This document shows, in pieces, positions 11,340-28,408 of a stretch of 64,000 nt of DNA. Origin of the DNA: Candidatus Omnitrophota bacterium. GTDB taxonomy: Bacteria; Omnitrophota; Gorgyraeia; B26-G9. The stretch spans positions 6,526 through 70,525 of the forward strand of contig JAHITY010000118.1 of NCBI GenBank assembly GCA_018817165.1. The letters are read 5' to 3'. The first letter of the stretch is position 1. The number at the start of each line of letters is the position of its first letter. The notes below the pieces were generated by a model. It saw only the letters and a program-made list of their open reading frames with translations. It was not told the origin of the DNA and made no database searches. Position numbers and translations under genes: made by a program.

Positions 11340-12738
11340 TAATACAGCAAAAAAAAATGTAGTAGGAATCGTTGTGGCAGTTCAAGGGCCGGTAGTCGAT
11401 GTTAAGTTTGATAACCAAGCGGATGTTCCCAATGTGTTTGATGTAATTCATACATTTACAATCGATGGCCTGAGAATAACCTTAGAAGTCGCGGAACATT
11501 CTCCCGGCAATATTGCCCGCTGTATTTCAATTAATTCAACTCAAAATTTACAAAGGAATGCCCAAGCTTTTCCCACTGGAGGAGGAATTGAAATTCCGGT
11601 TGGTGATGAGACTTATACACGATTGATGAATGTAATGGGTGAGCCGATTGACCATAAAGGTCCGATTAAAGCCACGGAAACAAGACCAATCCGCTTGGCG
11701 GAAAAAGGAACTTTTGTCAGCTTAAAAAAAGAGAGCAAAACCAAATTTGAAATAATGGAAACCGGGATTAAAATTTTTGATCTGTTGTTTCCTTTGGTAA
11801 CTGGCAGCAAGAATGGGATTCTTGGTGGCGCGGCTATGGGAAAAAGCGTGCTTACTTTGGAAATTATTCAGCATATTGTTAAGAGACATAAAGGTACTTG
11901 TGTTTTTACTGGTGCCGGAGAGCGTGTGCGTGAAGGTAATGAATTATATCATGAACTTGCCCGCCATGATATTTTAGAAAAAATGAAAATTGTATTTGGC
12001 CAAATGAATGAACCTCCGGGAGCTAGATATGAAGTCGCGATGACCGGGATTACTTTGGCGGAAAGTATTCAGCGGCAGAATAAGGATGTACTTTTGTTTA
12101 TTGATAATATTTTTCGATTTCTCCAGGCTGGTCAGGAGATATCGACACTTTTAGGCCGCGTTCCTTCAGAAACCGGATATCAGCCGACCTTGATTTCCGA
12201 GGCTGCGGAATTCCATGAACGAATTAGAACCTCTGAAGGAGGGGGAGGATCAATAACCTCAATTGAAGCTGTATATGTTCCGGCTGATGATTTAACTGAT
12301 CCCGCGGTAGTCGCGATTTTTAGCTTTCTTGATTCAGTTATTGTACTTTCCCGTGAAAAAGTGCAGCTAGGGCTTTATCCGGCGATTGATCCATTGCTTT
12401 CGTCATGCGCTAATCTTGATCCGGATATTGTGGGGAAAAGGCATTATGATGTTTCGCAACAAGTATTGCAGTTGTTTCAGCGGTATGAAGAACTGCGGAA
12501 AATAGTTTTGGTTATTGGGATCGATGAATTATCTGCTCAAGATAGGACAATTTATGAGCGGGCTCGGAAAATGCAGTTTTTTCTTACTCAACCGTTTTCA
12601 GTTGCTGAAGCTTATACCGGAAGACATGGAGAATATGTGGTTTTGGAAGATACATTATCTAGCTGCGAGCGGATAATGAGCGGTGAATTTGACCAAAAAA
12701 GAGAGGACTTGTTTTACATGATTGGGGCGCTACATTAG
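11332..12738 (+). CDS. atpD: F1 ATP synthase beta subunit. It has a divergent Walker A (GGAAMGKS) and a DELSAQD loop.
   Basis: The family signature is present throughout (GERVREGNELYHE, DELSAQDRTIYERARKMQFFLTQPFSVAE). The P-loop reads GGAAMGKS instead of the canonical GGAGVGKT. Confidence 0.9.
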   Translation: MANNTAKKNVVGIVVAVQGPVVDVKFDNQADVPNVFDVIHTFTIDGLRITLEVAEHSPGNIARCISINSTQNLQRNAQAFPTGGGIEIPVGDETYTRLMNVMGEPIDHKGPIKATETRPIRLAEKGTFVSLKKESKTKFEIMETGIKIFDLLFPLVTGSKNGILGGAAMGKSVLTLEIIQHIVKRHKGTCVFTGAGERVREGNELYHELARHDILEKMKIVFGQMNEPPGARYEVAMTGITLAESIQRQNKDVLLFIDNIFRFLQAGQEISTLLGRVPSETGYQPTLISEAAEFHERIRTSEGGGGSITSIEAVYVPADDLTDPAVVAIFSFLDSVIVLSREKVQLGLYPAIDPLLSSCANLDPDIVGKRHYDVSQQVLQLFQRYEELRKIVLVIGIDELSAQDRTIYERARKMQFFLTQPFSVAEAYTGRHGEYVVLEDTLSSCERIMSGEFDQKREDLFYMIGALH

Positions 12739-12799
12739 GGGATAGGGTGTAGGGGATAGGGTGTAGGGTGTAGGGTGTAGGGATTAGAGTTAGGGGTGT
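12738..12799 (+). repeat. G-rich tandem heptad repeat (GGGTGTA/GGGGATA)n, G-quadruplex-capable, starting at the atpD stop codon
   Basis: Eight G3-4 tracts separated by 3-4-nt loops on the sense strand. Confidence 0.8.
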
Positions 12800-12836: not shown

Positions 12837-12865
12837 TTGACAAAATCACTGATCAATGTAATAAT
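12837..12865 (+). promoter_or_regulatory. Putative sigma70-like promoter upstream of the gspE-PilZ cluster. It has TTGACA, a 17-nt spacer, and an extended -10 TGtAATAAT.
   Basis: TTGACA at 12837-12842, AATAAT at 12860-12865, and TG at 12857-12858. Confidence 0.4.
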
Positions 12866-12974: not shown

Positions 12975-15164
12975 ATGGATAGAAAAATTGATGCGCGGGT
13001 AATCCGTTTGCTTAAAGAAACAAAGAATCTTGATGAGGAAAACCTAAAAAGCTGTTTTATTAAAGCAGAAAACAAACAAAACTCGCCGATTCCGATCATT
13101 GCTGCTAATACCCAAATCTCAGAAGTTGAATTATTGGAAATAATTGCTCAGGATTTCCGCACAGAATATGTTGATTTGCGTAATACCTCCATAGAAAAAT
13201 CCTTGATTAAAAAAGTTCCGGTTAAAATCGCTGCCTATTATAAATTCGCTCCGATGCATCTGGAAAATCGGCTTTTAACAATTGCCCGGGCTTATCCTTT
13301 GGATATCAAAATACTTGATGAGATAAGAACGCACCTTGGGTATAGTATTAATGTTGTATTAAGCACGGAGCAGGATGTTAATGAAATGCTTAAGAAATAC
13401 TATGGTTTGGGAGCTTCAACTGTAGAGAAGATAATTGCCCAAAAAGCATATGAACATGTGACCAGTAAAAAACAAGATGATCTGGTGGATGATCTGGAAG
13501 AAACCGGAGAATCAACCTCGGTAATTCAACTGGTAAATCAGATAATTCTCGAGGCTTTTACTAAACGGGCAACGGATATTCATATTGAGCCTTATCGCAG
13601 TAAATTGCGTTTGCGCTATCGGATTGACGGTATTCTTTATGATGCCAATGTCTCTCCGGAAATTAATAACTTCCTTATTCCGATATTGTCGCGAATTAAA
13701 CTTATGTCTAATCTGAATATTGTGGAAAAACGAGTTCCGCAAGACGGCAGAGCAATTGTTCAAGTTCAAGGGCAGACTCTTGATCTACGGGTTTCGTTTA
13801 TTCCTACGCCTCATGGGGAAAGTGTTGTAATTAGAATATTGCCTACTGTTATGTTATTTGGTTTGGATAAATTAGGTCTAACCTCTATTGAACTTGATTT
13901 TTTCAAGCAATTGATCAGCAAACCGCATGGAATTATTTTTGTTACCGGACCAACGGGTAGCGGAAAAACAACTACGCTGTATACTTGCTTATCCAGTATA
14001 AATACTAGTGAACGGAAAATAATTACAATTGAAGATCCGATTGAGTATGAGCTTGAAGGGATAACTCAAATCCAAATAACTCCGGAAGTTGGTCTGGATT
14101 TTTCTCGTGGATTGAGAAGCATGCTGCGCCATGACCCGGATGTAATGATGGTAGGAGAAGTAAGGGATTTGGAAACAGCGGAAATAGCGATAAGAGTTGC
14201 TTTGACCGGACATCTAGTTTTTTCTACATTGCATACTAATGATGCTGCTAGCGGAATAACTCGTTTAATTGATATAGGCCTTGAGCCTTATTTAGTAGCT
14301 TCCAGTGTGGACGCGTTTATTGCGCAGCGTTTGCTGCGGCTGAATTGTCCGCATTGTAAAGCAGAAGATATTCAGGTAGTCCCAGGATTAAAAGCGCAAA
14401 TATTAAAAGAACTTGGTAAAAATGATGATGAAGAAATTAAAATTTATCGGAGCAAAGGCTGCCAAGCTTGTAATTTTACTGGTTTCTATGGTAGAACCGC
14501 GATACATGAAATATTAGTACTGAATGAGAAATTAAAAGCACTTACAGCAAAAAAAGCATCAAGCGATGAAATTAAAAAATGCGCGGTGGCTGATGGAATG
14601 AAGACATTACGCCAGAGTGGCTGGATCAAAGTCTTGGAAGGTCAAACAACCGCGGATGAAGTCTTAAGAGTTACTCAGGCTGATGTTTTACCGGAAAATA
14701 TGATATCGGTTGAGCAAGCTACATATGATTTTAAAAAAGATGAAAAGCCTTCTAAAATGCTTAAATTGGAGATGCCTGAAAAAATAGAACAAACAATAAA
14801 GTCTCATGATCAGCGTATTCACGAGCGAATAGAAAACAAGTTATATTTGCATTATAAAATGTTTAAAACAAAAACAAAAGATTCCGGAGAGCTGGAATAT
14901 GAGCCGGAGCTTATCGGAGTTACTAAGAATATTAGTGCCGGAGGAGTATTGCTGAATTCTGTGGAATATATTTCAAAAGGGACGATTCTGGATGTTAATA
15001 TGGAAATGCCTAATAATGAGAGAAAAATAGAATGTTTAGCAAGGGTTATTCGCTGTACAGAGGTTGTTCCTGATAAAAATTATGAAATAGCGATTTGTTT
15101 TTTAGATTTAGCAAGTGCCGAAAGAAGCAGACTTAATCGCTATATAAACAGTGTAAGCTCATAG
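12975..15164 (+). CDS. gspE: GspE/PilB-family secretion ATPase with a C-terminal PilZ (c-di-GMP receptor) domain
   Basis: GspII_E N-terminal domains, Walker [11 protein letters not shown], and the tetracysteine motif CPHCK...CQACNFTGFYGR. The last ~130 aa carry RIHER (RxxxR) followed by NISAGG (NxSxGG), typical of PilZ. Confidence 0.85.
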   Translation: MDRKIDARVIRLLKETKNLDEENLKSCFIKAENKQNSPIPIIAANTQISEVELLEIIAQDFRTEYVDLRNTSIEKSLIKKVPVKIAAYYKFAPMHLENRLLTIARAYPLDIKILDEIRTHLGYSINVVLSTEQDVNEMLKKYYGLGASTVEKIIAQKAYEHVTSKKQDDLVDDLEETGESTSVIQLVNQIILEAFTKRATDIHIEPYRSKLRLRYRIDGILYDANVSPEINNFLIPILSRIKLMSNLNIVEKRVPQDGRAIVQVQGQTLDLRVSFIPTPHGESVVIRILPTVMLFGLDKLGLTSIELDFFKQLISKPHGIIFVTGPTGSGKTTTLYTCLSSINTSERKIITIEDPIEYELEGITQIQITPEVGLDFSRGLRSMLRHDPDVMMVGEVRDLETAEIAIRVALTGHLVFSTLHTNDAASGITRLIDIGLEPYLVASSVDAFIAQRLLRLNCPHCKAEDIQVVPGLKAQILKELGKNDDEEIKIYRSKGCQACNFTGFYGRTAIHEILVLNEKLKALTAKKASSDEIKKCAVADGMKTLRQSGWIKVLEGQTTADEVLRVTQADVLPENMISVEQATYDFKKDEKPSKMLKLEMPEKIEQTIKSHDQRIHERIENKLYLHYKMFKTKTKDSGELEYEPELIGVTKNISAGGVLLNSVEYISKGTILDVNMEMPNNERKIECLARVIRCTEVVPDKNYEIAICFLDLASAERSRLNRYINSVSS

Positions 15165-15257: not shown

Positions 15258-15746
15258 ATGGGTGTGTATAAATATCAGGCAACAAAGAATATTTCTGGGG
15301 TTACCATTGAATCAATAATCTATGCTGATACCATTGAAGAAGCTTTTGAGAAAATAGTAGAAATGGGCTATTCACCGGAAAAAATAGAAGAGATTAATGC
15401 TCCTGATCGCAGGGTAAATGAGCGATTAGAAATAGGGTTAAAGTTTGTTTATAGCCGGTTTAAAACCGGACAGGCTAAAGGGAGAACAAGAGAAGCTTTT
15501 ACTCAAAATATTAGTTCAGGGGGAATGCTTTTTCAATCAGAAATATCTTTTGATATCGGAACGATTTTGGATGTTGAATTGTATTTACCGGAAGGGCTAG
15601 ATGATATTAAGTGTTTGTGCCGAGTAATCCGAAGCGATCAAATAAATCAACAGGCAAATCAGTATAATATAGCAGCGTGTTTCTTAGATCTGCCTAATTC
15701 TGAGCGTTCTAGAATAAATGATTATATAACACAGCAGAAAAGATAA
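15258..15746 (+). CDS. Small two-module protein: a GspF/PilC N-terminal-domain look-alike (~48 aa) fused to a canonical PilZ domain
   Basis: The N-terminus MGVYKYQATKNISGVTIESIIYADTIEEAFEKIVEMGYSPEKIEE aligns with the N-terminus of the next gene, MGLFKYKAKKGPNKIIKSVINASSRQEAIDRISEMGYLPIFIEE. The C-terminal half has RRVNER (RRxxxR) followed by NISSGG and is closely paralogous to the PilZ tail of the upstream ATPase (GTILDV, CFLDL..ERSR.N.YI). Confidence 0.6.
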   Translation: MGVYKYQATKNISGVTIESIIYADTIEEAFEKIVEMGYSPEKIEEINAPDRRVNERLEIGLKFVYSRFKTGQAKGRTREAFTQNISSGGMLFQSEISFDIGTILDVELYLPEGLDDIKCLCRVIRSDQINQQANQYNIAACFLDLPNSERSRINDYITQQKR

Positions 15747-15748
15747 AA

Positions 15749-16972
15749 ATGGGATTATTTAAATATAAAGCAAAAAAAGGTCCGAATAAGATTATCAAGT
15801 CAGTTATCAATGCATCATCTCGGCAAGAGGCGATTGACAGAATAAGCGAGATGGGATATCTTCCAATTTTCATCGAAGAGGTGCATGATGCTGGGGGTGC
15901 TATTTTTTCTAATAAAAAATTAAATAAAGTAAAATTAAAATCAAAGCAAGTAACTGTTTTTACCCGTCAATTGGCAATATTGCTGCGTTCAGGAGTCCCG
16001 ATTCTCAAAGGATTATTGATCTTGGCAGACCAAGCATTACATGCTGATTTTAAAGCTATCTTAAATACAATTAATGCTCAGATAAAAGATGGCAATTCAC
16101 TTTCCGCAGCATTATCAGCTTATCCTAAGATCTTTTCCCCGCTTTATGTTGCCTTGGTGCGTGCAGGGGAAGATAGCGGCACATTAGAAGTTTCTTTGCT
16201 GCGGATTGCCGAATACAGACAAAAACAAGAACAAATTTTTACTAATATTAAGACTGCGCTTACCTATCCGCTTTTAATGGCTTTTGTTGGTACAGGGACA
16301 ATTATATTTATGCTGACTTTTGTTATGCCAAGATTATTGGGGATTTTTGCCAGGTTAGGTCAGGAATTGCCGCTGCCGACAAAAATATTGATCAGTATCA
16401 GCAATTTTTTGACTCAAGGCTGGGTGTGGCTGATTATTGCGGGTATTGGTTTAAGCTTAGTATTTTATTTTAAAAATAATACTCCATCAAAAAGACGAAG
16501 GATATTTATTAGTCAGCTAAAACTTAAATTTCCGGTTTTCGGTGATGTTTTTCTGAAAGCAGAGTTAGCTAGATTTAGCCGAACTCTTGAACTTTTGCTG
16601 GACAGCGGGGTCCATGTGCTGGCTGCTTTACAAAGAAGTATTCCGATTGTGGAAAATGAAATAATGCAGGATGAACTAAAAAAAGCTTATAAAGCAATTG
16701 AGCAAGGTGAATCTTTTGGGTCAACGCTAAATCAATCGATTGTTTTCCCTAAATTCATGGTTAATCTCATAAGCGTAGGGGAAGAATCCGGAAATCTTGA
16801 AGAGGCACTTAAAGAATTGGCATTTACTTATGAAGAAGAAACTGATGAAGCAGTAAAAGTCATGACAAATCTTTTGGAGCCGATGATGATATTAATTATG
16901 GGAATTGTTGTTGGTTTTATAATAGTGTCGATGCTTTTGCCCGTATTTCAATTAAATGTAATGGTTAATTAA
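15749..16972 (+). CDS. gspF: GspF/PilC inner-membrane platform protein
   Basis: 407 aa with two T2SSF repeats, TM segments, and the characteristic N-terminal domain. Confidence 0.85.
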   Translation: MGLFKYKAKKGPNKIIKSVINASSRQEAIDRISEMGYLPIFIEEVHDAGGAIFSNKKLNKVKLKSKQVTVFTRQLAILLRSGVPILKGLLILADQALHADFKAILNTINAQIKDGNSLSAALSAYPKIFSPLYVALVRAGEDSGTLEVSLLRIAEYRQKQEQIFTNIKTALTYPLLMAFVGTGTIIFMLTFVMPRLLGIFARLGQELPLPTKILISISNFLTQGWVWLIIAGIGLSLVFYFKNNTPSKRRRIFISQLKLKFPVFGDVFLKAELARFSRTLELLLDSGVHVLAALQRSIPIVENEIMQDELKKAYKAIEQGESFGSTLNQSIVFPKFMVNLISVGEESGNLEEALKELAFTYEEETDEAVKVMTNLLEPMMILIMGIVVGFIIVSMLLPVFQLNVMVN

Positions 16973-16973: not shown

Positions 16974-17837
16974 TTGAAAATAAAAAAAACAGTTACTTAT
17001 CTTTTATTTTTTTTATTGATATTTTGCTATAGGCTGAGTTTCGCTGAACAGGGATGGACTCAGCTAAATTCAGATCATTTTATTGTCTATTATCAAGATA
17101 GCGATAAAAATTTTGCTGCTGATGTAGCAAGAAAAGCCGAGGAATATTATAATTCTATTGCCGACAACTTAGGATATGTGCGTTATTCGAATTTTTGGAA
17201 ATGGGATAAAAGAGTTAAAATTTATATTTATCCGGATCATGCGTCCTATCTTTTAGCGACTAATCAGCAGAGCTGGTCGCATGGAGTCGCGGATTATTTT
17301 AAAAAAGAAATAATTAGTTATGCCTGGGGAAAAGATTTTTTAAAATCGCTTTTACCTCATGAATTGGCACATCTAATATTCAGAGATTTTGTTGGCTTTA
17401 AGTCGGATATTCCTTTGTGGCTAGATGAAGGAGTTGCCCAATGGGAGGAAACGGAGTTAAAAGCCCAAAGACTTTCTCTGGTCAGGCAGCAAGCAAGCCA
17501 AAATATAATATTGCCAATTAGGACGATGATTGACCTGGACATAAGAACAATCGAAACTGACCAGCAGATAAAGCTGGAAGGTATGGCCTTGGATAATGGG
17601 CAAATCCCGATTCTGGAAATGGATGGAAGGGCTCTGGTTAATATTTATTATTTACAGGCTTTTTCTTTGGTAGGATTTTTAATGGAAAGATATGGGGCAG
17701 AAAGCTTTGTTGTTTTTAGTCGCCAGTTGCGAGATGGTAAGACAATTAGTGATGCTTTGAAATTTGCTTATCCACAGCAATTGCGGAGTATTGAACAACT
17801 GGAAAAACAATGGAAACAATATTTATTGAACGCTTAA
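16974..17837 (+). CDS. Secreted HExxH zinc-metallopeptidase-like protein of the peptidase MA-like fold. It has a TTG start.
   Basis: N-terminal signal peptide, then HELAHLIF (HExxH) with EGVAQWEE downstream. It is embedded between gspF and gspG. Confidence 0.45.
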   Translation: MKIKKTVTYLLFFLLIFCYRLSFAEQGWTQLNSDHFIVYYQDSDKNFAADVARKAEEYYNSIADNLGYVRYSNFWKWDKRVKIYIYPDHASYLLATNQQSWSHGVADYFKKEIISYAWGKDFLKSLLPHELAHLIFRDFVGFKSDIPLWLDEGVAQWEETELKAQRLSLVRQQASQNIILPIRTMIDLDIRTIETDQQIKLEGMALDNGQIPILEMDGRALVNIYYLQAFSLVGFLMERYGAESFVVFSRQLRDGKTISDALKFAYPQQLRSIEQLEKQWKQYLLNA

Positions 17838-17867
17838 ATTGAAAATTGAAATAAATGGGGGTAGGAT

Positions 17868-18272
17868 ATGAAGCGAAAACAAGGTTTTACTTTGATTGAA
17901 TTAATGCTGGTGGTTATTATTATAAGCGCATTAGCAGCTATGGTTTTGCCCCGGCTTGCCGGTCGTTCGGAACAGGCAAGAACCGCTGCCGCGAATGCTG
18001 ATATTAATGCGAATATTGCTACAGGACTTAAGCTTTATGAACTGGATAATGGTCAATTCCCCAGCACTTCGGAAGGCTTGCAAGCGTTGTTAATCAAGCC
18101 GGCTACTGCTAATACTTGGAACGGTCCGTATTTGGAAAAAGAGCCGATTGATCCATGGGGTAGAAAATATGAGTATAAATCTCCCGGACAGAATCGCCCT
18201 CAGGATTATGATCTTTTTTCTTTAGGCCGGGATGCTCAGCCGAGCGAAGATGATATAAATAATTGGAATTAA
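17868..18272 (+). CDS. gspG: Major T2SS pseudopilin GspG
   Basis: Prepilin leader with GFTLIELM. GPYLEKEPIDPWGRKYEYKSPG...DYDLFSLGRDAQP matches the GspG signature. Confidence 0.8.
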   Translation: MKRKQGFTLIELMLVVIIISALAAMVLPRLAGRSEQARTAAANADINANIATGLKLYELDNGQFPSTSEGLQALLIKPATANTWNGPYLEKEPIDPWGRKYEYKSPGQNRPQDYDLFSLGRDAQPSEDDINNWN

Positions 18273-18274
18273 AA

Positions 18275-18757
18275 ATGTTGTTTTTCTCTAAGCCAGGCTT
18301 AAATCAGTTGTTTAAGTTTAAATCGCTTAAAATAAGTTTCAGCCAAAATAAAGGGTTTACCTTGGTTGAGGTTCTTATCTCAGCGGTTATTTTGGCAGTG
18401 GGATTGGTAGTTATTTTTGAAGTATTTTTGACTTCATTAGATATCGTCAGCTTGTTTGATAATCGAATGAACGCGCAAATGTATTTGGATGAAAAAATCT
18501 GGCAGTTGCAGAGCAGTCTAGACCAGCAAAGCGGGCTGTTTATTCCCAGCAAACAGTCGGGCAAGGTGGTTTTAGGGCAAAAAGAATTTAATTGGCAGCT
18601 GGACTTGGAATTGGTGGATTTAACTCAGGAGTTGTTTAAAGTTAATGGGCAAATGAACTGGACAGAAGGTAAAAAAAATAGAAGCAGTAAGCGCCAAACA
18701 GTAGTTAAAAGCTATTTCAGCAATGCTAATCCTTGGAAAGATGAGGATAAGCAATGA
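18275..18757 (+). CDS. Minor pseudopilin (GspH/I-like). The ORF track starts at 18263 with TTG.
   Basis: A prepilin-type N-terminal methylation motif, KGFTLVEVLISAVIL, follows a ~25-aa leader. Confidence 0.55.
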   Translation: MLFFSKPGLNQLFKFKSLKISFSQNKGFTLVEVLISAVILAVGLVVIFEVFLTSLDIVSLFDNRMNAQMYLDEKIWQLQSSLDQQSGLFIPSKQSGKVVLGQKEFNWQLDLELVDLTQELFKVNGQMNWTEGKKNRSSKRQTVVKSYFSNANPWKDEDKQ

Positions 18758-19377
18758 TAAAAAAAAGATTATATTCCGGATTTACGTTTGTCGAAATGAC
18801 TTTAGCTACGGCAATGGTTGGCGTAATAGCGATTGCTTTGTACGCAATGATTGCTAATGGATTAAAAGTTTGGGAGATCGTTAATCAAGAATCTCCGCAG
18901 ATGGATGCCAGTTTGCTTTTTGAAAAAATAAGCATGGATTTAGCCAATGGGGTTTGCTTGGAGGGAAGTGATTTTATTGGCAATGAAAAGAGTTTTTCTT
19001 TTTCCTGCATTAGTAAAACATTTATAGCGGAGAATGGATTTAATCAAGGGGTGGGGCGAGTAAACTATGCCTATGACCCGGGAATGAAAGAAATTAATCG
19101 ACAATATGTGGATTATGAACAATTATTCGCAAAAGAGCAGCCGGAAGCGCGAAATTTAATCAGCAATATCAATAATATTCTATTAAGCTATTATTTTTTT
19201 GATGAGCAAAAAAAAGCTTTTTTATGGAGCAATGTCTGGCCCCCGGAAGCTTATGCTAAGCAGGATAAACATGCTTGGCCTTTAGCAGTTAGAGTTTCCA
19301 TAGTTTTTGAAATCCGAGGCCAGATAATTCAAAAAGGAAAAACATTTAATCTGCCGATCGGAGCAATTGAACTCTGA
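18754..19377 (+). CDS. Minor pseudopilin (GspI/J-like)
   Basis: N-terminal SGFTFVEMTLATAMV prepilin motif. Confidence 0.55.
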   Translation: MIKKRLYSGFTFVEMTLATAMVGVIAIALYAMIANGLKVWEIVNQESPQMDASLLFEKISMDLANGVCLEGSDFIGNEKSFSFSCISKTFIAENGFNQGVGRVNYAYDPGMKEINRQYVDYEQLFAKEQPEARNLISNINNILLSYYFFDEQKKAFLWSNVWPPEAYAKQDKHAWPLAVRVSIVFEIRGQIIQKGKTFNLPIGAIEL

Positions 19378-19396
19378 TTTAATATTAATAAGGTCT

Positions 19397-20509
19397 ATGA
19401 AAATAAATAAAATTATAATAAAGAGAAAAGGAAGTGTTTTAGTTCTTGTGCTTTGGGCGCTTGGACTTTTAAGTGTTTTTGGTTTATACTTAGGGCTGGG
19501 CGCGAGAAGTAAAATTGATTTTTTAAGTAGAATGGAAACGCGCAGTAAAACATTGCAGATAGCTGAAGCCGGAGTAAAACAGGCTATCGCGGCAATTGGG
19601 AATATTGATAAAAAAAAATTATATCTTTATCTTAATGATATTTGTTCAACCAATAATCAATTGTTTTCAGGAGTTGTATTCGATGATGGAGTTGTTCAGC
19701 TCGGAGTTGAATACCCAGCGAATGATTATTCGAATGGGCAAAGTGACGAACAAAATATTATCTATGGGGTTTCTGATGAACAGTCGAAACTGAATATCAA
19801 TACTGCCGAACGTAAAGAATTGCTTGCTTTATTAGTTGAATCCGCTAAAATTGACTCTGATATTGCTGATCAGATAGCTAGTTCAATTATTGATTGGCGG
19901 GATGCGGATTCTCTGTCATTGGCAAACGGCGCGGAAGATAATTATTATCATGCACTGAAAAACTCTTATGAATGCAAGGATTATCAGTTTGAATCAATAG
20001 AAGAGTTGCGTTATGTCAAGGGAATGGATTATAATATATTTAAGAAAATTCAATCGTATATAACGGTGTATGGTTCAGGTTTAGTTAATATAAATACTGC
20101 GTCAAGAAATGTATTAAAAGCCTTGGGATTAAGTGATAAATTAATCGATAAAATATTGGTTTACCGCTGCGGGCAAGATGAAATAGCGGCAAACGGCGAT
20201 GATGCTGTTTTTGAAAATATCAGTTCTGTTGTTGCCAAGTTGTCTCAATCTGAGGCAGTTTCAGCCAGTGAAGTTGCCCAGTTAAGTAATCTAACTGCTT
20301 CGGGGCGGCTGACTGTTTTTTCAAATATATTTTTGATTCAAAGTCAGGCAAACTTGAAAAATAAGCAGGATATTTGCCAGATTAAATGTTTTTTTGAAAA
20401 GAACCTAGATGAAAATTATAAAAAAGCAGGTTTTATTTTAGGCTGGAGAATGAATTATCTTAAATTATCACCGGATAATCAAGTAGAAGGGGATTATGGA
20501 ACTGAGTAA
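19397..20509 (+). CDS. gspK: GspK-like minor pseudopilin. The ORF track starts at 19367 with TTG.
   Basis: N-terminal hydrophobic GSVLVLVLWALGLLSV. The C-terminal helix-hairpin-helix LVNINTASRNVLKALGLSDKLIDKILVYR is typical of GspK. Confidence 0.6.
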   Translation: MKINKIIIKRKGSVLVLVLWALGLLSVFGLYLGLGARSKIDFLSRMETRSKTLQIAEAGVKQAIAAIGNIDKKKLYLYLNDICSTNNQLFSGVVFDDGVVQLGVEYPANDYSNGQSDEQNIIYGVSDEQSKLNINTAERKELLALLVESAKIDSDIADQIASSIIDWRDADSLSLANGAEDNYYHALKNSYECKDYQFESIEELRYVKGMDYNIFKKIQSYITVYGSGLVNINTASRNVLKALGLSDKLIDKILVYRCGQDEIAANGDDAVFENISSVVAKLSQSEAVSASEVAQLSNLTASGRLTVFSNIFLIQSQANLKNKQDICQIKCFFEKNLDENYKKAGFILGWRMNYLKLSPDNQVEGDYGTE

Positions 20510-21935
20510 ACACAAAGATATAATTGGTATAGATTTTTCAGCAGATCAGCTTAGTATCGGCCTGATGAAAACTTTAAACAAAGAGAAAACAATTATTAAT
20601 CTAGCGCAATATTCTATTGCTGGTGTTAGTGAGGCTGAAATAGCTCAGATGATTATTAAGGCTTTTAAGGATTTTAATATTAAAAATCCTTATGTGGTCA
20701 ATGTTGTCCCCTTACATCTTACGATAACAAAAAATTTAGAAATACCATCTTTGGATGTGAAAGAGATAAAAGAAATCATTGATCTGCAGTCGGGCAGACA
20801 GACGCCTTATGCCCGAGAAGAGATTATTGTTGATTATATAAATATTGGAACTTATCGGCAGAGCTATACAAAAATTTTATTGGTAATTGTGACTAGAGCT
20901 GCGATTAAAAAGCAGTTTGATGTTATGGAAAAAGCCGGGTTGAAAATTGAAAAAATAGTTTTTGCTCCGGAAGGTGTGAGCCGGGCATGCTACAGCCAGA
21001 TTAAAAAAGAAGTAAAAGACTCTCCAGTGGTTATCGTTCATATTGATTCAGATTTTACAGATTTTATTGTTAGCCTTAAAGGCGTGCCTATTTTTACAAG
21101 AAATATTCCGATCGGAGTTAAACATATTTCTGCTGATCCGGATAAATCGGAAATAAAGTTTATTGAAGAATTAAAAAACTCCTTGGAGACTTATCAGTCA
21201 GAAGATATTGATAAAACTCCTCAACTGCTAATATTGACCGGGGCTACGGAAAAGATCGAACAATTAGAAAAGTTAGTTATTGGCGAAATCCATATTCCGA
21301 TTCAGAGCATGCCATATTTTGGGTTAATTCCCTTGTCAGCGGATTTAGCGAAGATTCCGACAATTACAAAAAAGATTTCTTTCTTTAATATCGCGGCATC
21401 CGCTTTGTTTGAAAAAAATATGAAAGTGAGTCTTATCCCGGAAGAAATAAAATTAAAGCGATCTTTTGAAGAACGAGCGCAGGAACTGATTAAGATGGGC
21501 ATTTATATAATATGCTTGATGCTTATTGCCGGAAGTTTTTTTGTGACGGAGCTTTATTTTAAAGGTCAATATCTTAAGAATCTTAAAAAGAAAAATTCAA
21601 TTACTTACGAAGAAGCTAAGATATTAGAAAAAGCTATGGAAAAAATGCGGATTGTTAAGCATTATATGGCAAATAGAGGGTATAGTTTAGAAGTTGTCGC
21701 GGCAATTTACGATATATTACCAAAAGAAATTATGCTGACAAATATAAAGATGGATACTGAGAAAAAACTGCATTTAAAAGGTACTGCCCGGGCGATGTCT
21801 AATGTGTTCACATTTGTCAGTGCTTTGGAGGCATCTGAGTATTTTAGTAATGTTAAGACTAATTATACTACTTCGCGTAAAAAAGATGATGAAGATTGGG
21901 CTGATTTTGGGATTTCCTGTGTTTTAGCAAAATAA
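20496..21935 (+). CDS. gspL: GspL-like (PilM/PilN-type) assembly protein: a cytoplasmic actin-like domain, a TM segment, and a periplasmic domain
   Basis: N-terminal IIGIDFSADQLSIGL actin-like start, a central TM segment MGIYIICLMLIAGSFFV, and its position after gspK. Confidence 0.5.
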   Translation: MELSKHKDIIGIDFSADQLSIGLMKTLNKEKTIINLAQYSIAGVSEAEIAQMIIKAFKDFNIKNPYVVNVVPLHLTITKNLEIPSLDVKEIKEIIDLQSGRQTPYAREEIIVDYINIGTYRQSYTKILLVIVTRAAIKKQFDVMEKAGLKIEKIVFAPEGVSRACYSQIKKEVKDSPVVIVHIDSDFTDFIVSLKGVPIFTRNIPIGVKHISADPDKSEIKFIEELKNSLETYQSEDIDKTPQLLILTGATEKIEQLEKLVIGEIHIPIQSMPYFGLIPLSADLAKIPTITKKISFFNIAASALFEKNMKVSLIPEEIKLKRSFEERAQELIKMGIYIICLMLIAGSFFVTELYFKGQYLKNLKKKNSITYEEAKILEKAMEKMRIVKHYMANRGYSLEVVAAIYDILPKEIMLTNIKMDTEKKLHLKGTARAMSNVFTFVSALEASEYFSNVKTNYTTSRKKDDEDWADFGISCVLAK

Positions 21936-21964
21936 TTTAATAAAAATATATTTAGGGATCACAT

Positions 21965-22504
21965 ATGCTGCAAATTATTAGTAAACTTTCAAAAAGAGAA
22001 AAAATGGTTTTATCCGTGTCAATAGCTTTTGTATTTTTAGCTCTCTTAGACCGGGCGATACTTCATCCGATTATTGATAAAATGAAAAGCTTTGAGCAGG
22101 AAATAAAAGCGACTGAATATGAAATGACTAAGAATGTTAAAATTCTTGGGCAAAGCGCTCGCATAGAAAGGGAAGAAAAAAAGTATTCATCATATATAAA
22201 AGAAGCGGGTTCGGAAGAGGAAGAAACCGCTGGATTGTTGCGCATTGTGGAAAACCTTGCTAGTACCACTAATGTATATTTAGTTGATTTGAAGCCAGGC
22301 GGCGTAGAAATTGCTGGGAATGTAAAGAAATTTGTGATTAATGTTAGTTGTGAAGCGCAAATGCAGAAAATACTTAGCTTTATGTATGAAATAGAAAGTT
22401 CCGATGTTTTAATGCATATTGCAGCTTTTAGCATGAATCCAAAATCTAAGGACTCAGATATAAACCGTTGCGAATTTCTATTGAATAAAATAGTGATCCA
22501 ATAA
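21965..22504 (+). CDS. gspM: GspM/PilO-like bitopic inner-membrane protein
   Basis: 179 aa with one N-terminal TM helix, then a coiled coil and an alpha/beta periplasmic part. Position after the gspL-like gene. Confidence 0.4.
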   Translation: MLQIISKLSKREKMVLSVSIAFVFLALLDRAILHPIIDKMKSFEQEIKATEYEMTKNVKILGQSARIEREEKKYSSYIKEAGSEEEETAGLLRIVENLASTTNVYLVDLKPGGVEIAGNVKKFVINVSCEAQMQKILSFMYEIESSDVLMHIAAFSMNPKSKDSDINRCEFLLNKIVIQ

Positions 22505-22788: not shown

Positions 22789-22825
22789 AATTTGTTAAAT
22801 ATTGAACATAAGGGGAGGATACATA

Positions 22826-24010
22826 ATGAATAAAATGACAGTGAAAGATATTGATTTAAAAGATAAGAAAATCCTTATGCGAGCTGATTTTAATGTTCCT
22901 TTGGATGAAAATTGCAATATTACTGATGATTTGCGGATTGTCTCGGCTTTACCGACAATTAAATATTGTCTAGAGCAAGGGGCGGCAAAAATTATTTTGA
23001 TCAGTCATTTAGGCCGGCCCAAGGGGCAGGTTGTGGCTAAGATGAGTTTAAAACCAGTTGCCGTAAGACTGGAAAAACTTCTGGGCATGCCAATTAAGAT
23101 GTTGGATGATTGTGTGGGCGAATCAGTTAAAAGGGCAATTAGTCAATCAAGTGAAAAAGTGGTTTTATTAGAAAATTTAAGGTTTTATGCTCAGGAAACG
23201 AAAAATGAGCCGGTTTTTGCTCAGCAGTTAGCGGAATTAGGTCAGGTTTTTGTTAATGATGCTTTTGGTACAGCGCATCGCGCTCATGCATCAACTGAGG
23301 GTGTTACGCATTATCTGCCGGCAGTTGCCGGGTTTCTCTTGGAAAAAGAAATGGCTTATTTGGGCAAGGTAGTAGAAAATCCGGAAAGACCATTAGTAAC
23401 AATTCTCGGCGGAGCAAAAGTTTCCGATAAAATTAAAATGATTGAAAATATGATGGATAAAGTGGATTGTTTTTTAATCGGCGGGGGCATGGCATATACT
23501 TTTTTAAAGGCACAAGGTAAAGAAATCGGCGACTCTAAATTGGAAGCAGATAAAGTTGATTTGGCTAAAACAATTTTAGAAAAAGCAAAAGAAAATAATG
23601 TTGATTTTGTTTTACCGATCGACCATAAAGTAGCTGATAAGTTTGATGCTCAAGCAGCGGTGCAATATGTTGGCGAAGAAATCCCGAAAGGTTGGATGGG
23701 TTTAGATATTGGTCCGAAAACCATAGAATTGTTTAAACAAAAACTGAAAACAGCTAAAACAATTGTCTGGAATGGTCCGGTTGGGGTTTTCGAAATGGAG
23801 GCTTTTTCCAAAGGCACAGAGGCCTTGGCGCGGTATATTGCAACATTGCCAGCAACCAGTATTATTGGTGGTGGTGATACGGCTAGCGCAGTGAGAAAAT
23901 TTGATGTTGTAAATAAAATGAGTCATGTTTCAACTGGCGGTGGAGCCAGTCTAGAGTTATTGGAAGGCTTGGAATTACCGGGAATTGCCGCTTTAAAAAA
24001 CAGAACATAA
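22826..24010 (+). CDS. pgk: Phosphoglycerate kinase
   Basis: Full-length match (RADFNVP, GGGMAYTFL and the rest). RBS AAGGGGAGGA. Confidence 0.9.
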   Translation: MNKMTVKDIDLKDKKILMRADFNVPLDENCNITDDLRIVSALPTIKYCLEQGAAKIILISHLGRPKGQVVAKMSLKPVAVRLEKLLGMPIKMLDDCVGESVKRAISQSSEKVVLLENLRFYAQETKNEPVFAQQLAELGQVFVNDAFGTAHRAHASTEGVTHYLPAVAGFLLEKEMAYLGKVVENPERPLVTILGGAKVSDKIKMIENMMDKVDCFLIGGGMAYTFLKAQGKEIGDSKLEADKVDLAKTILEKAKENNVDFVLPIDHKVADKFDAQAAVQYVGEEIPKGWMGLDIGPKTIELFKQKLKTAKTIVWNGPVGVFEMEAFSKGTEALARYIATLPATSIIGGGDTASAVRKFDVVNKMSHVSTGGGASLELLEGLELPGIAALKNRT

Positions 24011-24019
24011 GGTATTAAA

Positions 24020-24478
24020 TTGAAAATAAAAAATAATTATTTAGGATTTACCTTAATGGAAATGCTTGCGGTAATAGCGATAATTTCTGTTTTAATGGGT
24101 ATAATTTTAAGTGGCGGTAATCAAGCAAAGCAAAGAGCCCGGATATATAAAACTAGAGCAATGATTGCTTCTTTGGAAACGGCTTTAGCCCTATATCATA
24201 CTGATTTCGGTGCTTATCCCGCAGCTGGAAATCAAAGTATGGTTAATGATTTGGCAGATGTTGCTGCTAATTCTTCAAATGCTGACTGGCATGGGCCGTA
24301 TATGTCATTTAAAGCAGCAGATCTTAATGGCCCTATTACTACAGGAACAGTAATTGATGCTTGGGGTAATGATTATGTGTATAATAATCCGCATCCTTTA
24401 GGCGCTATTCCACCATATGAAATAAGATCTCTAGGCCCTGATGCTTTAGATGCCGCTGATGATATAAGTAATTTGTAA
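24020..24478 (+). CDS. GspG-like pseudopilin (second copy), inserted between pgk and tpiA. It has a TTG start.
   Basis: LGFTLMEMLAVIAIISVL prepilin motif. The C-terminal signatures GPYM...DAWGNDYVY resemble GspG. Confidence 0.7.
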   Translation: MKIKNNYLGFTLMEMLAVIAIISVLMGIILSGGNQAKQRARIYKTRAMIASLETALALYHTDFGAYPAAGNQSMVNDLADVAANSSNADWHGPYMSFKAADLNGPITTGTVIDAWGNDYVYNNPHPLGAIPPYEIRSLGPDALDAADDISNL

Positions 24479-24501
24479 GTAGTAAACGGATTAAAGGCCT
24501 A

Positions 24502-24610
24502 TAATAATAATGATTCCGAAAGTGTCTGCTAGGCCGCAGCCATTTCGGACTAAATTCGCGCAGGTTGACTTGACGTCGTGAAGAACACTCCGTAAGTCAT
24601 GCGCTCATTT
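24502..24610 (+). repeat. Family A structured repeat, copy 3, in the tpiA 5' leader
   Basis: Shares ~105 nt with copies at 6472-6674, 42917-43023 and 47034-47134. It ends gcgctcattt directly before the AAGGAG RBS. Confidence 0.8.
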
Positions 24611-24622
24611 AAGGAGAATATA

Positions 24623-25387
24623 ATGCGTAAACCGATTATCGCTGGTAACTGGAAGATGAATAAAACAATAACTGAATCTTTGGATCTTGTCCGCCAACTT
24701 AGCATAGAATTGAAAGATGTTAAAGATGTCGATATACTGGTTTGTCCAGTATTTACAGCGCTGCATAGTGTTAGCCAGGCGGTTGACGGGTCTAATATAA
24801 AAATGGGAGCGCAGAATCTATTTTGGGAGGAAAAAGGGGCTTTTACCGGAGAAGTATCAGCTTTGATGTTAAAAGATACGCATTGCGAATATGTTATTCT
24901 TGGTCATTCGGAAAGACGAAGTATTTTTAAAGAAACTAATGAACATGTAAATAAAAAAATAAAAGCCGCGTTAAAAGCGGACTTATTACCTATTCTTTGT
25001 GTCGGAGAAAGACTTCAGGAACGCGAAGATGATAAGACTTATGATGTTATTACTGAACAAATCAAAGGTTCCTTAGCAGATATTAGCGCGGATGAACTGA
25101 AGAATATTATTATTGCCTATGAACCTGTTTGGGCAATTGGTACTGGAAAAGTTGCCAGTCCTGAACAAGCACAAGCCGTACATGCTTTTATCAGAAAACT
25201 TATATCTGATAATTTTGGTCAGGATACTGCCGAGAGTTTGCGGATTCAATACGGCGGGAGTGTAAAACCAGATAATATTAAAGTGTTGATTAATCAGCCT
25301 GACATTGATGGCGCTTTAGTTGGTGGAGCAAGTTTAAAAGCAGAAGATTTTATCCAATTAGTCTTAGCTTGTTCAATCCAGGATTAG
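24623..25387 (+). CDS. tpiA: Triosephosphate isomerase
   Basis: MRKPIIAGNWKMN start, and the catalytic motifs ILGHSERR and AYEPVWAIGTG. Confidence 0.9.
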   Translation: MRKPIIAGNWKMNKTITESLDLVRQLSIELKDVKDVDILVCPVFTALHSVSQAVDGSNIKMGAQNLFWEEKGAFTGEVSALMLKDTHCEYVILGHSERRSIFKETNEHVNKKIKAALKADLLPILCVGERLQEREDDKTYDVITEQIKGSLADISADELKNIIIAYEPVWAIGTGKVASPEQAQAVHAFIRKLISDNFGQDTAESLRIQYGGSVKPDNIKVLINQPDIDGALVGGASLKAEDFIQLVLACSIQD

Positions 25388-25465: not shown

Positions 25466-27142
25466 GTGATTTTCTCTACTGGGGTAAAAATGCTGAATAA
25501 ACAAAAAATATTAAGCGAATTTCTTGAAGCTAAAGGGATCGCTAATTCTGTACAACTTGAGCAAGCTAGGCAAATTCAACAGCGTGTGCAGAAACGTATT
25601 GACCATATCCTTAAAGATTTAGGCGTTAGCTATGACGATAATCTGTCTCAACTGATTATCGAAGAACTTGGGCTTGCTTATGTTGACGGACTAAATTATT
25701 CTTTTGAAAAAAAACTAATAGAACTGTTTAATCCCTTCTTTGCAAAACGTTTTAGAATTATTCCTCTTAAATTAGAATCAGATAAAATCTTAGTAGGTTT
25801 AGATGATCCGATAAATTTTTTGTCATTAGATTATTTTTCCGAAACCGTAGGCTTTATTGTGGAAGCGGAACTTATAACAAAAAAAGATATGGATTATCTG
25901 CTAAAAACTCATTATCAATCTGAAGAAGATGTTGCGCTTACTGACAATGGTTTGGTTGGATCTGAAGCAAATCTTCCGGAGGATGATGCTCCTGTTATTC
26001 AGTTAGTTAGTATGTTAATTTCTGATGCTTATGAAAAAAGAGCAAGCGATATTCATATTGAGCCTATGACTGATTCTTTAAGAATCCGCTATCGGATTGA
26101 TGGTATCTTAAGACAAGTGGAATCTCCAGAGAAAAATTTACAAGCTTCGATAATTAGCAGAATTAAATTAATGGCTGGTTTGAATATTGCTGAGAAAAGA
26201 TTGCCTCAAGATGGCAGGATCAGAACTGTGGTAAATAATAAGGAATTTGATTTAAGAATTTCAACCCTTCCTGCTCATTATGGGGAAAGTGTGGTATTGC
26301 GTATCCTAGATCGCCGAGTTATCAGAATTGAAGAAATGGGTTTTTCTTTGGCTCAGATAGAGAGTTTTAAAAACATTGTAAAAATGCCAAATGGAATAAT
26401 CCTTGTAACTGGCCCTACTGGCAGCGGGAAAAGCACAACTCTTTATGGGGTTTTAAATAGTATTAATCGCGCCAAGAAAAAAATATTAACAGTTGAAGAT
26501 CCGGTTGAGTATCAGATAAGCGGAATAAATCAGGTACAGGTAAAAACAAAAATCGGATTAACTTTCCCCATAGTATTAAGATCGATGTTACGACAAGCTC
26601 CGGATATTATAATGGTTGGAGAAATTCGGGATCTTGAGACGGCTAAAATTGCGGTGCAGTCTGCGCTTACTGGACATCTGATTTTTAGTACATTGCATAC
26701 AAATGACGCGCCAAGTGCGGTAGCGAGAATTGTTGATATGGGAATAAAGCCATATCTTGTCGGAGCTACTTTGCAGGCTATTTTGGCTCAGCGTTTGATT
26801 CGGTTGCTTTGTCCGGATTGTAAGCAATCTTATAAGCCGCCTAAAGATGAAATTAGAATTTTAGAAATTAAACCAAATAGTGAGATCGAAATTTTTAAAG
26901 CTGGGGGTTGCCCGCTTTGTGCTCATACCGGATATTTGGGGCGTACAGGTATTTTTGAGCTCTTAATGATTGATGAAAAAATCAGACGTTTAGCTGGTGA
27001 GCATGTATCGAGCAGTGTTATCAGGGAGCAGGCCAGAGCATCAGGGATGACTACATTAAAAGAGCATGCTCGGGATAAAGTGTTGGAGGGCTTAACCACC
27101 TTTCAGGAACTTGTTAGAGTTACTCAGAGCGATGTGGATTGA
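25466..27142 (+). CDS. GspE/PilB-family ATPase (second copy)
   Basis: T2SSE_N-type N-terminus, GPTGSGKSTT, tetracysteine CPDCK...CPLCAHTGYLGR. Confidence 0.85.
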   Translation: MIFSTGVKMLNKQKILSEFLEAKGIANSVQLEQARQIQQRVQKRIDHILKDLGVSYDDNLSQLIIEELGLAYVDGLNYSFEKKLIELFNPFFAKRFRIIPLKLESDKILVGLDDPINFLSLDYFSETVGFIVEAELITKKDMDYLLKTHYQSEEDVALTDNGLVGSEANLPEDDAPVIQLVSMLISDAYEKRASDIHIEPMTDSLRIRYRIDGILRQVESPEKNLQASIISRIKLMAGLNIAEKRLPQDGRIRTVVNNKEFDLRISTLPAHYGESVVLRILDRRVIRIEEMGFSLAQIESFKNIVKMPNGIILVTGPTGSGKSTTLYGVLNSINRAKKKILTVEDPVEYQISGINQVQVKTKIGLTFPIVLRSMLRQAPDIIMVGEIRDLETAKIAVQSALTGHLIFSTLHTNDAPSAVARIVDMGIKPYLVGATLQAILAQRLIRLLCPDCKQSYKPPKDEIRILEIKPNSEIEIFKAGGCPLCAHTGYLGRTGIFELLMIDEKIRRLAGEHVSSSVIREQARASGMTTLKEHARDKVLEGLTTFQELVRVTQSDVD

Positions 27143-27159
27143 ACAGAGAACAGATAGAG

Positions 27160-27290
27160 CGGAAAGGGTAGTCGGTGACGAAGCCCGTATCGGTAACGGT
27201 CACGGTTAAAAATAATGAATTTTAAGCCGAAAGACGTTGCCCTAAAACGAAACGGGTATCGTAACCTTAACCATAACCTTTTAAAAATGA
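27160..27290 (+). repeat. Family B structured repeat, copy 3, between the ATPase gene and pilT
   Basis: gacgaagcccgtatcggtaa ... cgaaacgggtatcgtaacc cores shared with 7727-7880, 10165-10328 and 58990-59112. Confidence 0.75.
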
Positions 27291-27303
27291 AGGGGGTGAA
27301 AAC

Positions 27304-28368
27304 ATGGTAGATATTGGAGAACTATTACAGCTATGTGTTAAGCATAATGCTTCGGATTTGCATTTAACTGTAGGTAAACCGCCAACGCTGCGCATTGACG
27401 GATCATTGATGTCTTTAAATTATGAACCGCTGGGGCATGAAGAAACTGAGGGATTGATGAAGTCACTGACCAGTAATGATAATCAGCGGCGGATTCAGGA
27501 AGTGGGGGGAGTTGATTTTGGTTTTGCGTTTGAAAAAATAGCCAGATTCCGTGTGTCTGTTTATAAACAAAAAGGACATTATGGTTTGACTTTGCGTCTA
27601 ATTCCCACTCATTTGCTTAGCTTTCAAGAAATTGGAGTTAGCGATGTGGTCAAGCAGTTGCTTTATCGTCCTCGGGGCTTAATTTTAGTTACCGGACCTA
27701 CAGGGTCTGGAAAAACCACAACTTTAGCAACAATGACGGATTTTATAAATACTGAGCGCGATGCGCATATTATTACAATAGAAGATCCAATAGAATATTA
27801 TCATACGCATAAAAAAGGGATTATTACGCAAAGAGAATTAGGCGTAGATGTGCCTAGTTTTAGTGAAGCCTTGATAAAAGGCTTGCGTCAAAATCCTGAT
27901 GTAATCCTAGTTGGTGAAATGCGGGACTTAGCAACTATTGAAGCGGCAATTTTAGCTGCGGAGACAGGCCATTTGGTTTTGGCGACTTTACATACAACCA
28001 GCGCGGCAAGAACTGTAGACAGAATCATTGATGTTTTTCCTCCTAATCAACAAGAACAGATAAGGACACAGTTATCTACTTCAATATTAGCGGTAATTTC
28101 GCAGCAATTAATTCCTAAAGCTTCTGGCCGAGGTCGAATCGCGGCTTTTGAGCTGATGATTAATACATCTTCGATTCAAAATCTTATTAGAGAAAAGAAA
28201 ACATATAGAATTACTTCTGATTTGCAGACTGGGGCAAAATATGGTATGAAGACATTTGATTCTTCTTTATATGAATTATATTCAAATGGCACAATTCGCT
28301 CAGAAGATGCGATTGATAAGGCATTTGACCAAGATGCTATGCGAGCAAAAGTCGAAGGCAAACTATAA
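27304..28368 (+). CDS. pilT: PilT twitching-motility (retraction) ATPase
   Basis: Lacks an N-terminal domain. [31 protein letters not shown] and the [11 protein letters not shown]-type motif are present. Confidence 0.85.
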
Positions 28369-28408
28369 GAAAATTGTTTGTAAATCCAGGTTTATTTAGG
28401 AATCAACT

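Follow-up and report, generated by a model that had tools for sequence, protein, structure and literature searches.

The window analysed here, a 64-kb stretch of the Candidatus Omnitrophota contig JAHITY010000118.1, contains a gene, gspE-pilZ, whose product joins a GspE/PilB-family ATPase and a C-terminal PilZ domain in a single polypeptide of 729 residues. Judging by its sequence motifs, this protein is the assembly ATPase, with a catalytically intact core, of a type II secretion system (T2SS)-like type IV filament machine of the Omnitrophota, and the PilZ tail is probably a genuine receptor for cyclic di-guanosine monophosphate (c-di-GMP) that regulates the motor, as suggested by its sequence and predicted fold. 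The fusion is a phylum-wide trait of the Omnitrophota. In a sub-clade that includes the window, a second PilZ domain is found on a small protein encoded between gspE-pilZ and the platform gene gspF, fused to what looks like a detached copy of the N-terminal domain of GspF.

The gspE-pilZ gene (Table 1) is read from the window DNA as one frame without interruption, and its product is 100% identical to a database entry from a Candidatus Omnitrophota metagenome-assembled genome. The ATPase motifs are complete: Walker A (GPTGSGKT, residues 325-332), the Asp box (EDPIE, residue 353), Walker B (DPDVMMVGEVRD, residues 387-398), the His box (TGHLVFSTLH, residues 411-420) and the tetracysteine (residues 458-499, with CPHC at 458 and CQAC at 496), so that the conserved tetracysteine and the C-terminal ATPase motifs that the initial annotation had placed before the tail are all present. 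Its nearest solved relatives, by comparison with the PDB, are PilB from Geobacter and Myxococcus and GspE from Vibrio. PilB can be aligned up to residue 570, which corresponds to the end of Geobacter PilB (5tsg and 5zfr), and because this is where PilB proteins end, the extension is taken to start at residue 571; it comprises residues 571-729 (approximately 159 residues, divided into a linker of about 40 and a PilZ domain of about 119). The protein scores below the NCBIfam cut-offs of both relevant equivalogs (564.6 versus 630.25 for GspE, TIGR02533; 545.2 versus 675.65 for PilB, TIGR02538) and is assignable to neither of them.

Residues 645-725 match the Pfam PilZ profile (PF07238) with 38.4 bits (E 1.7e-9), well over the gathering cut-off of 22.5 bits. 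A PilZ domain on the C-terminus of the ATPase was the central claim of the initial annotation, which had located it at 14775-15164 (residues 601-729 plus the stop codon) with the motifs RIHER and NISAGG; these positions do cover the domain, both motifs were read correctly, and the profile score, the predicted fold and the conservation described below bear the claim out. In an alignment of 39 sequences (A1), made up of 38 diverse tails and the PilZ half of the neighbouring 162-residue protein, neither arginine of RxxxR varies, nor does the final glycine of (D/N)xSxxG, in which the serine, alanine and first glycine are at least 90% conserved. The 20-65 residues that precede the PilZ domain are not alignable in A1 and vary in length (the complete tail has 135-179 residues among homologues). 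RxxxR is found at the aligned position in 119 of the 120 best homologues and [DN]xSxxG in 117, and the two ligand motifs are under strong purifying selection. Comparison of the A1 profile with the PDB led to the c-di-GMP-binding PilZ domain of MotI (also known as YpfA) from Bacillus subtilis (5vx6), in which RRxYxR aligns over RRQYVR and NISAGG over NISAGG; MotI was reached by the family profile only, and phmmer with the tail as a single sequence gave no PilZ match in the PDB. An AlphaFold2 model of residues 571-729 predicts a low-confidence linker (predicted local distance difference test score, pLDDT, about 59-66) followed by a six-stranded barrel and a C-terminal helix (pLDDT 88-96). When this model was compared with the PDB using Foldseek, ranks 1-42 were PilZ domains throughout, many of them solved with c-di-GMP (MotI, 4xrn from P. 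aeruginosa, YcgR, BcsA, Alg44, MrkH and PlzA). As far as sequence and a predicted model can tell, the tail fits all the sequence and fold criteria of a canonical ligand-binding PilZ. A degenerate, non-binding type II PilZ, as described in Xanthomonas and Pseudomonas, was also considered and rejected, as the tail keeps both RxxxR and NxSxxG.

All of the 120 best homologues, drawn from NCBI, JGI, ENA and Logan assemblies, carry the same three domains (PF05157, PF00437 and PF07238), at 52-93% identity and with lengths of 698-761 residues, which is the outcome of the database search for GspE-PilZ fusions that had been proposed together with the initial annotation. When one genome of each GTDB species was searched with a pattern specific to the tail, 95 loci were confirmed, and 80 of them were kept; the pattern is specific to one PilZ subfamily, and independent T2SSE-PilZ fusions elsewhere are outside its reach. 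The PilZ domain lies in the stop-free frame of the ATPase core in 79 of these 80 species-representative loci, single-cell genomes included, and the single exception begins at a contig end. The titles of the loci are overwhelmingly Omnitrophota, and a few read Planctomycetia, Deltaproteobacteria, Patescibacteria or Eisenbacteria. A spread beyond the Omnitrophota, which these odd titles might indicate, was rejected, given that the loci show the same atpD-gspE-pilZ-gspF-peptidase-gspG order and similar identity; such labels are unreliable, and the loci were treated as belonging to the same lineage. Among the loci checked, the G+C content extends from 33% to 65%, and the fusion is therefore old. 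The tail profile also matches P0261 (3205 residues, with 10 PilZ-like stretches) and P0134 (300 residues, T2SSF_N followed by two PilZ stretches), and therefore several architectures make use of this PilZ subfamily. Public protein sets already show the fusion architecture in their automatic Pfam annotation; in a full-text search of an incomplete literature, it was not found described in PilZ surveys, in papers on MshEN, in recent reviews on receptors for c-di-GMP and on cofactors of PilB, in the 2026 c-di-GMP gene census or in the Omnitrophota giant-gene study (10.1101/2023.11.21.568195).

ATPases of the MshE type bind c-di-GMP through two 24-residue motifs situated in their first ~60 residues (PMC5013675), which follow in tandem the consensus RLGxx(L/V/I)(L/V/I)xxG(L/V/I)(L/V/I)xxxxLxxxLxxQ. 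None of the 120 GspE-PilZ N-termini matched the relaxed form of this pattern published by Wang et al. 2016 (PMC5013675): the window protein has no glycine at motif positions 3 and 10 and no terminal glutamine, and its Pfam MshEN match covers the C-terminal subdomain only (residues 61-147). Because this MshEN-like N-terminal region lacks the motif, the PilZ domain appears to be the sole recognisable c-di-GMP site on the ATPase. The PilB protein of a separate type IV pilus (T4P) cluster in the window (28409-30112, 567 residues) matches motif II in full and departs from motif I at position 1 only, and the domains through which the two machines of the window read c-di-GMP may therefore differ. Besides GspE-PilZ, the window encodes two PilB-like ATPases, this one included (558 and 567 residues, 41-44% identical), and both stop at the end of the core, without a PilZ domain, and the 64-kb window contains two PilZ copies only. 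In two relatives, a stand-alone MshEN-domain protein of 155-158 residues, not present in the window, is encoded between atpD and gspE-pilZ (L002:6534-7001 and L003:6284-6760). Its motifs, QLGEILISRGIINQKKLGEALELQ and FLGAILLKKRYIREVDLLEALAEQ, are nearer to the c-di-GMP consensus than the N-terminus of GspE-PilZ; position 1 departs from the relaxed pattern in both, and in the second so does position 10.

The second PilZ domain of the locus belongs to the 162-residue protein, which matches the PilZ profile with 46 bits (Pfam cut-off, 22.5). Its residues 40-157 share 44% identity with the tail of gspE (E 4e-29, far above chance), and its residues 1-46 share 45% identity with residues 1-46 of GspF (E 3e-9). 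The initial annotation had described this protein as a neighbouring adaptor with a duplicated PilZ: the duplicated copy holds, whereas the generic adaptor has to be replaced by a copy of the GspF N-domain joined to PilZ. In P0169, the version of the protein in a relative on a 72% branch, precomputed Pfam annotation gives PF28597 (T2SSF_N) plus PF07238, and its gene sits between a 734-residue GspE-PilZ and GspF; P0175 likewise has a precomputed PF28597. The T2SSF_N assignment of the window protein is made through its homology to GspF and through these homologues, not by a PF28597 score of its own. An AlphaFold2 model of the 162-residue protein predicts three strands (residues 2-10, 16-23 and 38-46) and one helix (residues 26-35), a topology that matches the one described for the N-domain of PulF (PMC10790770), then a low-confidence hinge (49-52) just before RxxxR (52-56), and finally a PilZ barrel plus helix, and the best PDB matches of this model are PilZ domains. 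The PulF N-domain lies at the periphery on a flexible tether and, although not essential, makes a significant contribution to secretion and to the assembly of pili (PMC10790770).

RxxxR and NxSxxG are kept in all 16 small-protein homologues collected. A word-index search with the 162-residue protein returned 9 close relatives, which is an underestimate of its range, and exhaustive searching with a profile added about 9 more clusters, at 50% identity, of T2SSF_N-PilZ proteins. Among the species loci, the small gene is present in 7 of 80, restricted to a sub-clade and always between gspE-pilZ and gspF, a placement shared by a more distant version of the small protein; in three more distant relatives it was not found, and gspE-pilZ is there followed directly by gspF. 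Since the gene is confined to a sub-clade, control by c-di-GMP at two points would be a lineage-specific feature and not an ancestral design. The PilZ domain of the small protein is 40-48% identical to the GspE tails of its own broader clade and 30-37% identical to distant ones, and its junction peptide, PEKIEE, can be aligned to each of the two parents, the gspE tail and GspF. The origin of the small gene would be explained by one tandem duplication that took in the PilZ-coding 3' end of gspE together with the start of gspF.

These features suggest how the motor could be regulated. c-di-GMP would bind the C-terminal PilZ domain of GspE-PilZ, and the segment with RxxxR, where the flexible linker ends, would clamp onto the barrel over the ligand, as in other PilZ proteins, shortening and fixing the tether and altering the packing of PilZ on the ATPase. 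The likeliest docking site could be the N1 (ND0/ND1) domain of the same ATPase: free PilZ binds ND0/ND1 of Xanthomonas PilB, in which ND0 also lacks MshEN motifs, and leaves the PilM/GspL-binding face free (PMC8389850). This specific docking model is proposed by analogy and with far less confidence than the role of the tail as a receptor. The level of c-di-GMP would then gate the activity of the hexamer or the docking of the motor on the GspL-like/GspF platform and, through the motor, the assembly of the pseudopilus and secretion or adhesion. Activation at high c-di-GMP is favoured because of the analogy with MshE/PilB and BcsA: pilus assembly by MshE needs c-di-GMP, and in BcsA the ligand, bound at the RxxxR linker, relieves auto-inhibition. 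On the other hand, YcgR and MotI are inhibitory. In the sub-clade, the tandem duplication reaching from the end of gspE into the beginning of gspF would have created a second receptor, the GspF N-domain-PilZ protein, which probably carries a second c-di-GMP input to the partner of the peripheral GspF N-domain and would either serve as a tethered adaptor or compete with GspF. A broader re-wiring scenario can be put forward tentatively, and as a whole we consider it rather unlikely: an ancestral N-terminal MshEN sensor would have been lost and replaced by a canonical C-terminal PilZ that docks in cis on N1, as a hard-wired, FimX-independent version of the PilB-PilZ complex of Xanthomonas, with the detachable GspF N-domain-PilZ protein of the sub-clade competing with the N-domain of the platform itself, or supplementing it, in a c-di-GMP-dependent manner. 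As the locus is invariably linked to a surface protein of several thousand residues and to the ATP synthase operon, such a switch may time an attachment or predation apparatus in these ultra-small bacteria.

Several points weigh against regulation of the motor by c-di-GMP. The spacing between RxxxR and NxSxxG in the tail is 37 residues, with an inserted loop, which we take to be long for a typical PilZ domain. The docking site on N1 is purely conjectural, and the direction of the control is not readable from the sequence. Genes for GGDEF, EAL or HD-GYP proteins were found neither in the window nor, by a tblastn with crude queries that also covered the window, in ~717 kb of related loci (88 in number); these loci represent the same genomic neighbourhood, and the tblastn result says little about whole genomes. 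In favour of a role of c-di-GMP, Omnitrophota are reported to have GGDEF domains as well as small pilZ genes, beside giant genes and a T2SS-like locus (10.1101/2023.11.21.568195). Against it, of the four Plz proteins of V. cholerae that keep the motifs, biochemical binding was shown for PlzC and PlzD only (PMC4624772).

The alternative that survives best concerns the output of the machine, which could be a pilus or adhesion type IV filament instead of a protein-secreting T2SS, with PilZ controlling attachment or prey contact; we regard it as possible, although not as the leading interpretation. The gene order was compared between positions 24-22504 of the window and loci L001-L005, L007 and L009-L088, and the order in Omnitrophota is a gene for a surface protein of 2.1-3.4 thousand residues (in the window, a 2146-residue Ig-repeat protein), the F-type ATP synthase operon, gspE-pilZ, gspF, the Peptidase_MA_2 gene and gspG to gspM; atpD is directly upstream of gspE-pilZ in 62 of the 80 species loci, and the peptidase gene is downstream in 56. 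In the window, gspF is followed by genes for the Peptidase_MA_2 protein, GspG, two pseudopilins (one of them GspJ-like), a GspK-like protein, a PilM-PilN fusion (GspL-like) and a GspM-like protein. Of the core Gsp set (C, D, E, F, G, H-K, L, M and O), the cluster has E, F, G, J-like, K-like, L-like and M-like members, and no GspC, secretin or prepilin peptidase (GspO) was found in the cluster. That both GspE and GspF (the latter also according to NCBIfam) fall below the equivalog cut-offs for T2SS and T4P, that the best PDB matches are PilB, that the cluster has a PilM-PilN fusion instead of any recognisable GspL, that the sole secretin belongs to the separate T4P cluster, and that a gene for a large surface protein is always close by, all speak for a pilus or adhesion filament. 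However, the pseudopilin and platform genes match the T2SSG (106 bits), T2SSK, T2SSJ and T2SSM_b profiles, and the window contains a separate, complete T4P cluster with PilT at 25466-36602. "T2SS-like type IV filament system" is the limit of what this evidence supports, and either output is compatible with the c-di-GMP mechanism.

It is improbable that the tail acts as a ligand-independent interaction or stabilising module, similar to the type II PilZ that chaperones the N-terminal domain of PilB, with c-di-GMP uninvolved. Free PilZ does bind and stabilise PilB N1D without c-di-GMP (PMC11656802; PMC8389850), and the lack of c-di-GMP turnover genes in the window would agree with such a role, but non-binding PilZ proteins lack both the RxxxR and the DxSxxG motifs (10.1101/814665), which are kept here at tail identities of only ~30-45%, and in structure the closest neighbours are canonical PilZ domains with a bound ligand, XC1028 appearing only at rank 48 in the Foldseek comparison of the small-protein model. 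Binding of another nucleotide (for example, cyclic GMP-AMP, cGAMP, or another cyclic dinucleotide), or of c-di-GMP as a non-regulatory structural cofactor, is very improbable. MshEN binds cGAMP weakly (PMC5013675), and specificity is not readable from the two motifs alone; nevertheless, the ligand-bound structural neighbours of the tail in the PDB are c-di-GMP complexes throughout. To our knowledge, the characterised ligand-binding PilZ domains that have both motifs bind c-di-GMP. Finally, a sequencing, assembly or gene-calling artefact, in which the tail would be a separate open reading frame (ORF), has a negligible probability and was excluded, since the frame is continuous in the window, in the independent assemblies of all the best homologues and in the species-representative genomes, the many N-terminally truncated fragments in databases are cut off by the end of a contig and not at the junction, and neither a tail that fails to score as PilZ nor a frameshift, the two outcomes that would have gone against the initial annotation, was found.

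Table 1. Features of the gspE-pilZ locus, with positions in the 64-kb window.
Feature	Position	Strand	Basis
Promoter candidate, sigma-70-like (TTGACA-17-AATAAT, extended -10 TG)	12837..12865	+	11/12 matches, best in region
gspE-pilZ, GspE/PilB-family assembly ATPase with C-terminal PilZ, 729 residues	12975..15164	+	ORF, Pfam, NCBIfam, homologues, PDB matches
N-terminal part of gspE-pilZ	12975..13154	+	Relaxed MshEN motif in 0/120; similarity to NfrB (MshEN) over residues 15-173
MshEN (T2SSE_N, N1 domain), residues 61-147	13155..13415	+	Pfam, 55 bits; aligns to N-terminal domains of PilB 5tsg and 3jc8
T2SSE ATPase core, residues 179-565	13509..14669	+	Pfam, 428 bits; PDB alignment; motif reading
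Linker, residues 571-610	14685..14804	+	Variable length and sequence, gappy unconserved columns; pLDDT 59-66
Canonical PilZ domain (predicted beta-barrel plus C-terminal helix), residues 611-729	14805..15161	+	Pfam, alignment, profile, AlphaFold2, Foldseek
RxxxR motif, R614-I-H-E-R618 (RIHER)	14814..14828	+	Read from DNA; alignment to MotI 5vx6
(D/N)xSxxG motif, N652-I-S-A-G-G657 (NISAGG)	14928..14945	+	Read from DNA; alignment to MotI
T2SSF_N-PilZ protein, 162 residues, second PilZ of the locus	15258..15746	+	Pfam, alignments, homologues, AlphaFold2, Foldseek
GspF N-domain copy (beta-beta-alpha-beta), residues 1-46	15258..15395	+	Similarity to GspF; P0169; AlphaFold2
PilZ domain of the 162-residue protein, residues 50-162	15405..15743	+	RVNER at 15411-15425, NISSGG at 15507-15524
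gspF, platform protein	15749..16972	+	Own N-domain, residues 1-46 (15749-15886)
Rest of the T2SS-like cluster	16974..22504	+	Profile matches; order conserved in relatives

The number of sigma-70-like sites in the region does not exceed the shuffled expectation, so the promoter of Table 1 is a candidate only. About 40 bp upstream of this promoter-like site there is a G-rich tandem repeat, which starts from the stop codon of atpD (12736-12796) and contains approximately 6 copies of TAGGGTG, also readable as 3.4 copies of the 14-mer TAGGGGATAGGGTG; the coding strand could fold into a G-quadruplex here. The Peptidase_MA_2 protein encoded directly after gspF (16974-17837, 287 residues), a conserved component of the T2SS-like cluster, has a hydrophobic N-terminus and might be a substrate or a processing factor; we know of no such component in the classical T2SS. 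Between the two filament clusters, in the stretch 22802-25387, pgk (22802-24010) and tpiA (24599-25387) flank a lone GspG-like pseudopilin gene (24020-24478). The T4P-type cluster (25466-36602) encodes two PilB-like ATPases (558 and 567 residues), PilT, PilC, a PilM-PilN fusion, PilO, an unassigned protein of 236 residues and the only secretin of the window (34704-36602). Further downstream, a 1209-residue protein is encoded (49651-53280), in which a CofD-like segment alone was recognised, followed by a RelA/SpoT-HD protein of 930 residues (53429-56221), long for this family, so that (p)ppGpp signalling genes are present in the window.

Two routes by which c-di-GMP reaches T2SS and T4P motors are documented in the literature consulted, an N-terminal MshEN domain and the separate partners PilZ and FimX. 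The first is represented by MshE from V. cholerae and PA14_29490 from P. aeruginosa (PMC4624772, PMC5013675), which belong to the same family as GspE-PilZ (T2SSE plus T2SSE_N) and also have a motor with a c-di-GMP receptor in cis. In these proteins the receptor is the four-helix MshEN motif pair at the N-terminus, whereas GspE-PilZ has a PilZ barrel at the C-terminus and no MshEN motifs. In the second, the PilB-PilZ-FimX system of X. citri (PMC8389850), a PilZ-fold module sits on a PilB-type ATPase whose ND0 lacks MshEN motifs, as is the case here, and c-di-GMP acts on the motor by way of an assembly that contains PilZ, as proposed here. However, the PilZ of X. citri is separate, degenerate and non-binding, and c-di-GMP is read by the EAL domain of FimX; in the Omnitrophota the PilZ is canonical and fused, and the locus contains no FimX-like gene.

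Outside these motors, BcsA (4P00) also carries a canonical PilZ domain in cis on the C-terminus of the enzyme that it regulates, although BcsA is a membrane glycosyltransferase and GspE-PilZ a hexameric secretion ATPase with a long linker predicted to be disordered. MotI/DgrA (YpfA) and YcgR (5vx6, 5y6f), whose PilZ domains are the closest to the tail by profile and by fold, are c-di-GMP effectors of a membrane nanomachine, but they are free two-domain proteins (PilZN plus PilZ) that act as a brake or clutch in trans, with no ATPase fusion. With regard to the small protein, its residues 1-46 share their predicted topology and the 45% identity given above with the N-domain of GspF/PulF (PF28597; PMC10790770), which is tethered to the membrane platform in GspF and, in contrast, detached and fused to PilZ in the 162-residue protein; a GspF N-domain-PilZ architecture was not found described in the literature searched. 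If GspE-PilZ does respond to c-di-GMP as proposed, the C-terminal PilZ fusion would be a third, independently evolved route of c-di-GMP control, and it would tie c-di-GMP signalling to a conserved Omnitrophota secretion locus that lies beside very large surface proteins. The fusion would also provide a single-polypeptide system to study the gating of a hexameric secretion ATPase by a second messenger, and the detached GspF N-domain-PilZ protein a handle on the partner of the GspF N-domain. A motor with its own receptor (MshEN), the action of PilZ on PilB in trans and a C-terminal PilZ in cis (BcsA) are all known; what is new, within the literature searched, is a canonical PilZ on the C-terminus of a GspE/PilB ATPase, phylum-wide and accompanied by the loss of the MshEN motifs.

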